Of a stretch of DNA of 64,000 nt, positions 208 to 60,715 are shown one piece after another. The DNA comes from Carcharhinus longimanus. Lineage: Eukaryota. The DNA is taken from contig JASCQW010000043.1 of the NCBI GenBank assembly GCA_030264375.1, forward strand, positions 74,615,397 through 74,679,396, written 5' to 3'. The notes below the pieces were generated by a model, which worked only from the letters and a program-made list of their open reading frames with translations, was not told where the DNA came from and ran no database searches. Every line of letters begins with the position of its first letter. The first letter of the stretch is position 1. The position numbers were made by a program, and so were the translations under genes.

Positions 208-54446
<54,239 letters not shown>

Positions 54447-54881
54447 GTTGTGGATGCGACTGGGCTAGGATAATCACACACCGTCTTAGCTCCCACCAAA
54501 CGGCCACTTTAATCCTCAGCAAAGTAGACGCTGTCTGGCAAACTTCATACTCCTCGGAGCGATGGCGAGTCAAAGTTTGCGCCTTCCATTCCCACATTTC
54601 GCGATCTGGGGGATCCCGGCGATCTTCTACATTCACGGGAACGGTGCGCTTTTAAGAGAGACCCGGAGAGCGAAGCTTGAAAACGTTCACCTTCTTCCAG
54701 AGACTGGGGAGTTTACCCGCACCGATCACTCGCTTGAACCATTCTATGCACCAGGCCCTGGAACTCTGTGAGCCTTGATTCAATAGAAAAAAAGCCTCTC
54801 TCTCCATTTAGGGGGGAAGGAAAGCAAAAACCCGCCTCCAGGGCCGTCAGATGGCTGGGAGAAGGCTTGTATTGCTTGGCT

Positions 54882-54944: not shown

Positions 54945-54962
54945 AGCTCACCAAAGTAGAGA

Positions 54963-54971
54963 GACCACCCA
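54963..54971 (+). promoter_or_regulatory. Consensus GLI binding site GACCACCCA, proximal promoter
   Basis: Exact consensus about 520 bp upstream of the ATG; PTCH1 is a canonical direct GLI target. Confidence 0.9.
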
Positions 54972-55876
54972 GGCTGTGAATGCATCCATGCCCACTTCAG
55001 GGGAGCCGCGGTTCGCCTGAAAGAAATCATAGCTCTCCACTCCCGTCTCCCTCTCCCTTCTTTTGCACGCACTCGGTTTAAAACAAGAGTTAATGTACAA
55101 AGATATGATCCTGGGATTATATTTCTTCAGCGGGCACCTCGGGGGTTTCTGCAGATTACACAGCGGGCCGATTCTCGCGAGGAGATTGAACTTTTGGAGG
55201 CACTTTGCTCTGATTTAGAGAAAACCCTTTAGCGGCATCTTGGCCCCAAGTTGTAACAAATGCTGGGAGGTCTCCCCGTTGAATCGCCAGCTTGCACAAA
55301 TAATGACAGTGCCTGCATCGTGCAGTGGGGAAGTGTCAGCTTTTTGCATTCACTCGAAATCTCAATAGCTGCTCTTTCTCGACCCACACATTAAATGGAA
55401 AACAAAATAAACTTTTTTTTGTGGGGGGGGGGCGAATCGCCCTGAGTAAATGGGAATATTATCAGACTGGAGAAAAACAAACTTATTTATTTGTTAAATC
55501 ATGGGATGGGGTGGATTTTGGATATAAATAAGGTTATCGACAATTTTTAATCATAGAAATCTCCCACATGCCTCCCGGCCGCCCCCACACAAACCACACA
55601 CACACACACACACATTTTCATTTTATTCATTGAGATAGGGGAGTTTCACTGGAGGTCATGTGACCGGCGTACCCAGGGCGACGCGCTGCAACAATGTGGG
55701 AATGACTGAATGACAGGAGTAACACAGGAAGAAAACAAAAAGCTCAGTAGTCCTGTCAAACTCCATCAGGATCAATGTGATTTGCATGGCTAATTAACAG
55801 ACTTCTGTTAATTTCTAGAAGGGGAAGAAGGTGGCTGGCTGGGGAAGGAAACCTGATAAATCAAATTTCACCTTCA

Positions 55877-57867: not shown

Positions 57868-60430
57868 AGCTATGGATGCCCTCAATTTGCCTCATTGCTA
57901 ATGCATGCGAGTGTTCTATTCCGAAGCGATAATGTTGTTCGTAATCAATCTAGCCTTATTTACATTTGGAAGCATTGTTGTCTTTAATATGCATGCCTTG
58001 CTCATGTAAACGGCGCTCGACGCCCGGTTGGGTTAACTTCAACAAATCACTAAAGGTCTCCTCATAGTGGTCAGAATCTTTTTTTTCGGATTGAATCAAT
58101 TTTATTTTTCACTTGGGTTTTGCAGAGTACAACTAGCAAGCTAATCTAGCTCTTCTGCGTTTGACCACTTTTTTCTGTAATGGTACTTATTAACAGGATT
58201 TCTATACATTTAGTCAACCATCCATTCATACATTAACGGGATACCCATGTTTTACGTTACGTGGATTTTTAACTTTACTCTGTTATTTTTCATTTATCAT
58301 CATGGTTAGGTAGAGACATACATAAAATCCAATATCTTGAATATGTTTCTTTGAGCATCATTGATTGGTTGGTTTTAAATTTGCAATAAGAGTATACTTT
58401 TAAAAACTGTTATATGGATCTGTTTGTTACAAGTTGTCTACCCAATCGTATATTTAGGTCAATCAGTGCATATTATGAAAAATGGCAGATATATGCTGTT
58501 CCTTTTTTCACTCCATCCACCCATCCATATACTGTGCCAGGCTGTCCTCCCCTCTGCCCATGCTGCCTTCAGGCACAAAGTATTGCATTATTAGCTCCCG
58601 CTAAACAGGCAATGCCAGCAGGTATGCATTGTGGCACATTACATCTCCCATTATATTCTTCCAACTCCAACATATATAGGTTTTTAATCTTTAGAATTTA
58701 AAGATCACCCATTTCTAAGCAGCTCTGGCGACAACGGTACAAAAAGTGCAAGCTTTCTATAAATGACCATCACTGACTAACATGGATCATTCATCCCATT
58801 TTCAATTCCAATAAACACAAGTGAACTGGGACTTTGGACATCACTTCCAACTCGTACCAAGTGTTGCTTTGGAGCTATGTCTTTCGCTTACTGATTTTGA
58901 ATTAAGAATCTCTTCAATACTTCTAATTCGTTTAGTTTCATTTGAGTTTTTCATGTATTGATTGGCTTTACACCTGGAAAACTTTGAGTGATGGAACATT
59001 GCAGATCACATTGACTCATCTCACAGTGCAACATATATTCAATGTAGATTTTTGCCTGGACTAATTAATAAGGATACTTCATCAGAGTGCGAATATTACT
59101 TGCACTTCTTCCTTTGAACTATTTTCAGTTAACAGGGATTTTCAACTGAAGTAGATGTTGTCTTCCAGTGAGTTTTAATCTTGTAACTCGTTTCAATATG
59201 TCAAGCCCCCACTCTTCCCCTCCTCCCACTTCTCCCACACACGTTGGGCGAGGGGGGGGGGGCACTACTCACAAAATCTGTCAAAATAACGCAACTAATT
59301 ACCCTTGATGGAGCTGAAAGAGAAGTGGATTGCATGCTGTCCAGAGCATGGACACCGAATTAGGGGTACAACACACAGGCATATACACACTGACAAACAC
59401 ACACAAAAAGATCTGCTTTCAGTAAGTAATTTTAATCATTTCAGGGGCCATTCATTTGACAACCTAGCATCACGTCTTGTCGAACACGATTGGCGACACG
59501 ATCCTTTGACCTGCCGCTGTAGCAACAAATTTATTAGATATATAGGCATGAGAAATGAAAGGAAGTAAAACAATCGCGCCTCATTGTGCTCACCCTTTGA
59601 CTCTGCTAATCCGGTTTACACCTCACGCCTACATCACTCAATAGGACTATTACCAGCAAAAAATAAAAGGGGGGGGGGGTTGCTGATGTCTATGGGGGAA
59701 AACTATTTAAGTGAAAATGAGAAAGATTAAGACATTTCTTTACACGCAGCGATCTCCACCATCCCTTTTTTGTGATTGAAATTTTTTTTGCAAAGGGCTA
59801 CGCTTTAAATATAATTATCTGGCTGCACGTTTTATTGTTGCTTGTGATCAGAAATAAATGATTCGGTTTATCACCCATGCTTTGGATTACTTTTATAGGC
59901 AGACCAACTAGTTTGATTTTAAATATCATTAAAACATTCATGTGTTTGAAGTAAAGCAAAGAAAAAATACAACACCCACTGACAAATAATTTAAATGAAA
60001 TAGCAATCGAGGTGAAAAAAATGTAGATGTCTTTTTCCCCTGCTGAGGACAGCACTAATCATAGATTTATTTTTGTCCCAGAGGTGCATCTCAATAGGAA
60101 TTGCACTGAACGGAAGCTGGGGGCAACCCCTCGGAGCGTGAAAATAGGTTACAGGGATCCTAAGGACCCCCAACTTTGTCAGCGTTTCCATCAATGACTC
60201 CGTCTGTTCAGCATCTAAGTCTAACTGAGTATTCCGAATACAGTGAGAACACAAAATCACCTCAGATACATATCAATGCTCTGATACCACCCAACCATAA
60301 TAATCCCACTATTAGCTACAGCAACAGTGGCTGAATTAACAATATCAGTAACACAACATGCCCAAGCTATTTGCCAAGAGTATACCCCAAGAGCATTGCA
60401 GTCTTTTTTTTCAAAGGTAATTTCACTTAC

Positions 60431-60660
60431 CATCTTCCTCGAGGCTTCCTTGTGTGACCGTACTGGTCTAGCTTTGCTTTATATTTTCGGGGAGTATACG
60501 ATGTTATTTTTCACAAGGTTTAAAAAGTGATATTTTTTAAAGGAACAGGGAGTGTAATAATCCTGCTAGGTTGCAGTCATTCTGCTGTGTGCTGGAAGGT
60601 CTCACAATTACATGCCTGTTTCTATTAAGCAGCGCGATCCTCGAGGTGGGTGGTCTGCTC
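60431..60660 (-). other. PTCH1: Probable alternative first exon of PTCH1 (exon 1a-like); 5' end approximate
   Basis: Strong donor AAGATG|GTAAGT at 60431/60430. Sequence CTGCTTAATAGAAACAGGCATGTAATTGTGAG reads LLNRNRHVIV, resembling the recalled human exon-1a N-terminus MELLNRNRLVIVS. Adjacent GLI/E-box/GC-box cluster. Confidence 0.75.
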
Positions 60661-60715
60661 TCAATAGGCAGGACCTGTCACCGTCACGTGACGGCCCCAA
60701 CACCACCCCCGCCCC
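60647..60715 (-). promoter_or_regulatory. Distal promoter cluster: GACCACCCA (60647-60655), palindrome CCGTCACGTGACGG (60681-60694), GC box (60707-60715)
   Basis: Three exact motifs within 70 bp in a locally CpG-rich patch. Confidence 0.8.

Follow-up and report, generated by a model that had tools for sequence, protein, structure and literature searches.

PTCH1 isoforms carry the labels M, L' and S, and the human form NM_001083602 / NP_001077071 is the one we take to be labelled 'isoform M'. Its first exon is called exon 1a in the numbering of Nagao and exon 1C in that of Shimokawa. A GLI site within mammalian exon 1a is said to have been reported by Nagao in 2005. Passages of PMC10363645 and PMC3449132 place the ATG of the mammalian form in this most upstream exon, which is spliced to exon 2; a passage of PMC3449132 puts mouse exon 1a/1C more than 9 kb upstream of exon 2, and in a supplement of PMC4496206 a primer for mouse exon 1a is located at -7645 relative to the 1b ATG. 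PTCH1-1B and PTCH1-1C are termed Hedgehog-regulated variants in part of PMC3362617, and Hedgehog-induced PTCH1 variants are described as the strongest inhibitors in part of PMC2386930, while a section of one review makes 1C a weaker pathway inhibitor than 1B (PMC10363645). The available text and supplements of PMC4887206 hold no shark or exon data, and the available parts of PMC2989332, PMC9581113 and PMC6534611 hold nothing informative on the exon 1a question. A literature search on shark conservation of the isoform returned nothing relevant; subscription papers, the primary ones included, and bioRxiv supplements lay outside it and may report it.

The window, the whole stretch of DNA analysed here, is 64,000 nt from the shark Carcharhinus longimanus and carries the 5' part of PTCH1 on its minus strand (Table 1). 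In a protein search with exon 2 as query, the named full-length top matches were all patched 1, with identity up to 100%. Seventeen exons rebuilt from the window gave 958 residues, of which 949 are identical to PTCH1 of Mustelus asterias, the closest among the 13 shark proteins compared; the end of the last exon was mis-called in this frame. The gene was assigned as the PTCH1 orthologue on its best matches and on the PTCH1 frame that its exons restore. PTCH1 relatives were also confirmed by a PDB search, which had no bearing on the N-terminus. All 56 residues of the exon 1b peptide are identical to Heterodontus XP_067886187.1, and a search for distant relatives of this peptide gave 22 matches, the best at 95% and the others at 47-69%. 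Folded as a single sequence, it reached a mean pLDDT of 69 and a pTM of 0.35; nothing above cut-off was found for the exon 1b and exon 2 peptides in a Pfam scan. The exon 2 acceptor at 53111 is preceded by a pyrimidine tract and TAG, and the exon begins GGA AAG GCT ACT in phase 0. Eight N runs are present in the window, and several fragments of intron 2 (44900-49600) resemble LINE reverse-transcriptase tails by eye.

Table 1. Features of the 5' region of shark PTCH1, in window coordinates.
Feature	Position	Strand	Remark
GC box (GGGCGG), putative promoter element	60709..60714	-	motif scan
Palindromic E-box GTCACGTGAC, putative promoter element	60683..60692	-	motif scan
Distal GLI consensus site GACCACCCA	60647..60655	-	perfect 9-mer, 213 nt before ATG
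Conserved element, residues 3-17 of mammalian MELLNRNR-type PTCH1 N-terminus	60588..60632	-	tblastn 11/15, E 2e-4
Start-stop upstream ORF (ATG TAA), if exon begins 5' of it	60608..60613	-	
Four-codon upstream ORF (MTAT)	60566..60580	-	end 132 nt before main ATG
In-frame TAA closing frame 5' of start codon	60479..60481	-	overlaps TATAAA at 60483
Start codon, final three bases of exon 1a	60431..60433	-	context AAG ATG
Exon 1a splice donor GTAAGT	60425..60430	-	top of 647 GT sites; same 9-mer used at 21010
Proximal GLI site region upstream of exon 1b	54950..54973	-	24/24 bases identical to mouse Ptch1 primer
Exon 1b coding part, long-isoform N-terminus	54279..54446	-	168 nt, 56 codons
Third conserved first exon, 3' end	53772..53810	-	donor GTC/GTAAGT at 53772
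Exon 2, acceptor common to three first exons	52919..53111	-	encodes GKATG through first hydrophobic segment
Exon 3	28830..29019	-	internal Met at 28960 (MFNPQ) starting short form

The preliminary description had proposed that a distal exon of this gene ends AAG ATG/GTAAGT, with an in-frame TAA 16 codons upstream, and that its ATG is joined to a phase-0 exon 2 starting GGA, by which Met replaces 56 exon-1 residues. Each of these elements was found: the ATG at 60433-60431 with the donor from 60430 on the minus strand, the TAA at 60481-60479 as the 16th codon, GGA at 53111, and an exon 1b of 56 codons. Joined to exons 2-4, the ATG gives an open frame without stop that starts MGKATG; joined to exon 3 it gives MLVVE and then a stop (5 codons), and unspliced read-through closes after 58 codons. 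Only the ATG is supplied by the distal exon, in frame with exon 2, and it lies several kb upstream, separated from the 1b ATG by 5987 nt and from exon 2 by 7.3 kb. The start context is strong, with A at -3 and G at +4, as had been claimed; that it is created by splicing did not hold, since the +4 base is G spliced or unspliced, so that splicing keeps the Kozak context. We read the stretch, with a probability of about 0.9, as the 3' end of shark PTCH1 exon 1a (1C), a first exon with a GLI-bearing distal promoter and a terminal ATG that is spliced to exon 2.

On a donor matrix, the donor at this ATG scores 9.9 bits. Upstream of exon 2, 10,889 nt contain 647 GT sites, of which it is the best; it is also the best of the 13 ATG/GT sites there, the next of which scores 4.1 bits. 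On the same matrix, scores of 5.0-12.0 were obtained for the 16 donors of the gene that had been called correctly. An identical donor 9-mer serves an internal exon of the same PTCH1 gene at 21010. In random 300-nt strings, 110 of 20,000 held an ATG with a donor of at least 8 bits and a purine at -3. We rejected the Kozak-plus-donor motif RNNATGGTRAGT as stand-alone evidence (1 match in 64 kb vs 0.68 expected). A donor directly after the exon 1b ATG (ATG/GCCTCG) was rejected by inspection as the source of the Met, as it lacks the consensus.

A promoter with a GLI site had likewise been claimed, and a perfect 9-mer does lie at the exon, at 60655-60647. The 9-mer has three sites in the window (60655-60647, 54963-54971 and 12249) vs 0.40 expected, and 1 of 100 shuffles reached three. 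The proximal site region is the one that matches a mouse Ptch1 primer, which is given in part of a bioRxiv preprint (10.1101/2024.01.11.575263). A literature search on the flanks of the distal site returned no PTCH1 title except a paper with the proximal-site primer. Of the 20 windows between 53.0 and 63.0 kb, 18 have a CpG observed/expected ratio above 0.41, the 95th percentile of the gene body, as expected for a promoter domain, and the ratio drops to 0.1 beyond 63.0 kb. The segment 63100-64000, where CpG retention falls to 0.1, has by eye a near-duplicated segment and a frame resembling a retrotransposon fragment. If the exon starts 5' of both, as homology to the mammalian exon suggests, the two tiny upstream ORFs (60613 and 60580) may reduce initiation; the TATAAA at 60483 allows a shorter leader.

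Taken together with mammalian PTCH1, this arrangement would work as follows. The first exon would be made from a distal promoter with a GLI site, located some 6.0 kb 5' of where exon 1b starts, and would be spliced in this species over 7.3 kb to exon 2 to give a receptor of about 1379 residues, a length taken from related sharks. Met would take the place of the 56 cytoplasmic residues of exon 1b, and all membrane segments would be retained, the first hydrophobic segment because its start, residue 90 of the long form, falls inside exon 2. By analogy with mammals and from the motif, GLI would bind and control the shark promoter, and Hedgehog signalling via GLI would most likely increase this transcript, which would form a second arm of negative feedback by PTCH1. 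The terminal ATG would let the distal promoter yield a near full-length and presumably active inhibitor. If it were absent, initiation would drop to the exon 3 Met, giving a short form without the first membrane segment.

Proteins that begin with Met + exon 2 were sought among 561 PTCH1 records, of which 47 unnamed ones were excluded and 514 named ones counted. Met + exon 2 is exactly the N-terminus in 62 of the 514, and 13 others carry a longer prefix whose last residue is Met; most are automated models, and the counts are cluster samples, not a census. As introns end in AG, a Met that immediately precedes GKATG has to be contributed by a spliced exon. Seven of 13 shark species have a Met-only record (two Scyliorhinus, Heterodontus, Stegostoma, Hemiscyllium and two Chiloscyllium), and none was seen for the other six (Mustelus, Carcharodon, Cetorhinus, Rhincodon, Heptranchias and Pristiophorus). 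Six of eight batoid species have one, among the 14 named records listed of 28. Like the spliced product predicted from the window, RefSeq models of Scyliorhinus canicula (XP_038660724.1), Heterodontus francisci (XP_067886190.1) and Amblyraja radiata (XP_032873595.1) have Met directly before GKATG, and where both forms were seen the elasmobranch Met-only models are 55 residues shorter than the exon 1b form (1379 vs 1434). In ray-finned fish such records occur in sturgeon, both paddlefish copies, pike and five salmonids, with Met-Met in gar, and in tetrapods they occur in caecilian, axolotl, many frogs, snakes, lizards, birds, opossum and placentals. None was seen among 12 Callorhinchus, 4 Latimeria and 1 lungfish records, 15 listed of 81 cyprinid-cluster records, or 9 named catfish-cluster records. 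The extended models end R-G-K-M in turtles, M-K-M in a snake, G-E-M in lizards and M-M in gar, and the R-K-M of the window is alike; the turtle and lizard extended N-termini matched nothing in the window. In a bird, several mammals and human RefSeq (P0028, P0031, P0534), a Met + exon 2 form of 183 residues is annotated, which ends at the YLL exon boundary.

That a human isoform starts MGKATG, as the preliminary description had stated, was supported. Human RefSeq NP_001341848.1 begins with Met + exon 2, and reviews put the ATG in exon 1a/1C. A table in PMC11201393 numbers NP_001077071.1 66 below NP_000255.2, with Lys89 as Lys23; in Met + exon 2 this Lys is residue 23, so the offset of 66 fits one residue before exon 2. 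The proposed age, before the split of sharks and bony fish, is supported by Met + exon 2 records in sharks, batoids, ray-finned fish and tetrapods, and judging from these sequences the Met-only receptor form is very likely as old as jawed vertebrates. That it is easily missed by annotation is only half true. Three-base coding exons escape protein-based annotation, and no record was seen for 6 of the 13 sharks, among them the nearest relative, Mustelus asterias; RefSeq nevertheless already models the form for 13 elasmobranch species, seven of them sharks and six batoids.

The stretch before the donor also has a mammalian counterpart. A few mammalian PTCH1 proteins begin MELLNRNR, a peptide which we take to be isoform L', originating in exon 1a; it is the N-terminus in 2 of the 514 named records, a bat (P0403) and a ground squirrel (P0547), both placental. 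Residues 3-17 of this peptide match the shark element at 60632-60588, which begins 14 nt after the distal GLI site and precedes the exon 1a donor. The tblastn E-values are optimistic, with four stray matches at E 0.002-0.007 among 35 prefixes tested, so shuffling and location carry the orthology argument: none of 1000 shuffles reached the score, and 4 of 1000 placed their best match in that 230-nt stretch. The distance from the Met position to the donor is similar, 208 nt in the shark, while the two mammals have 192 and 201 nt. Homology of the shark exon to the mammalian one is seen in this 45-nt element, matched through the mammalian peptide; the mouse exon 1a primer had no match in the window at 3 mismatches.

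Unlike the mammalian peptide, the shark reading has ATC (Ile) at the Met position (60638), is closed by a stop at 60539 after 31 codons, and lies one base off the Met-only frame. With no upstream ATG and no open frame, the mammalian long (L'-type) reading cannot be made in the shark and looks like a later gain. The Met-only product is thus likelier than the long form to be ancestral, in a comparison of one shark with two mammals, and the pattern suggests an element conserved as DNA and a later coding gain from regulatory DNA. A table in PMC11201393 makes NM_001083603 one residue shorter than the reference. This length fits the MELLNRNR peptide as L' from exon 1a.

Shark exon 1a is like that of human and mouse in that it is the most upstream, bears an ATG, would join exon 2, and would put one residue before exon 2; it also lies several kb upstream of exon 1b and has a DNA element in common with them. 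The distances are 7.3 kb to exon 2 and -5987 to the 1b ATG in the shark, and more than 9 kb and -7645 in mouse. Unlike in the human form, in the shark form 56 residues would be replaced, not 67, and unlike the mammalian exon, the body of the shark exon is AT-rich, not GC-rich, and its second, long reading is closed.

The third first exon (53772-53810) matches the N-terminal prefixes of named models from sheep, panda, monkey and ide, and its donor scores 5.0. It has no in-frame ATG, which leaves the exon 3 Met at 28960, and it would give the short form; this Met begins the shark short records of 1293-1295 residues. The shark thus appears, from its sequence, to have counterparts of all three mammalian PTCH1 outputs. 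The exon 1b leader (54430-54597, minus strand) contains an upstream ORF of 55 codons from 54597 that overlaps the main ATG out of frame, and a second of 14 codons from 54589. The 55-codon ORF matches the prefix of a croaker model, so the exon 1b leader is conserved from shark to teleost. Two catsharks (P0125, P0135) have a further first exon that gives MVLVW ahead of exon 2; the part of the window upstream of exon 2 yielded no such peptide.

Exon 1a could be real in the shark and still serve chiefly as a leader without a coding role, or feed production of the short form: its upstream ORFs would take up the ribosomes, or it would be spliced to exon 3, with translation beginning again at the exon 3 Met. 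The ORFs at 60613 and 60580, the stop after MLVVE when the ATG is joined to exon 3, and the MFNPQ-type records common in sharks would all agree with this, as would a passage of PMC3449132 in which mouse exon 1C is spliced to exon 2 or 3. We consider it unlikely, however, as both ORFs are tiny and end at least 132 nt upstream of an ATG whose -3 and +4 bases make a strong context, and as Met-only records extend from sharks to human, which is unexpected for an idle ATG.

It is extremely improbable that the shark Met-only models derive from another ATG/GT, e.g. the one at 53843 in the intron ahead of exon 2, and that 60431 is a chance donor. There are 13 such sites upstream of exon 2, RNNATGGTRAGT is expected 0.68 times per window by chance, and weak donors can be real, given the conserved donor of 5.0 at 53772; but the 12 other sites score at most 4.1, less than any of the gene's 16 donors that were called correctly (5.0-12.0), and the GLI site and the mammal-conserved element precede only 60431. 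Alternatively, transcription might start further upstream and the GLI site lie outside the promoter, the stretch being an internal exon or a donor-bearing GLI enhancer. An acceptor-like site before 60777 has 10 of 14 pyrimidines, where real acceptors have 9-14, and the CpG-rich domain extends to about 63 kb. The GC box, E-box and GLI site are nevertheless clustered just 5' of the conserved element, and the mammalian exon is described, in passages of PMC10363645 and PMC3449132, as the most upstream first exon, which makes this reading very unlikely; it would leave the protein product the same.

The shark exon 1a is the orthologue of a known Hedgehog-induced mammalian exon, and it reveals no new mechanism. 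The present analysis ties an exact shark exon to its mammalian counterpart and puts the two products of the exon in order of origin, which indicates which of them is older. It also dates a known mammalian Hedgehog feedback isoform back to the last ancestor shared by sharks and bony vertebrates, an age that speaks for selection on the form. Antibodies or knockouts directed at exon 1b fail to reach the Met-only form.

An N-terminal Gly can be subject to lipid modification or glycine-specific turnover. We put forward tentatively, and regard as rather unlikely, the wider view that the earliest jawed vertebrates already had all three PTCH1 promoters (distal for the Met-only form, exon 1b for the long one, proximal for the short one) and that the Met-only form was kept as a biochemically distinct receptor, and not just for its full length; of this view, the age of the form and the closed shark frame are supported here, and the biochemical part is speculative. 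If it is true, the Met-only form would lose a conserved cytoplasmic motif of 15 residues, its Gly-first N-terminus after Met removal could invite such modification or turnover, and a different lifetime or location might be set for the feedback receptor. On this view, the long form that mammals make from exon 1a would have arisen later, as a conserved regulatory element became coding.
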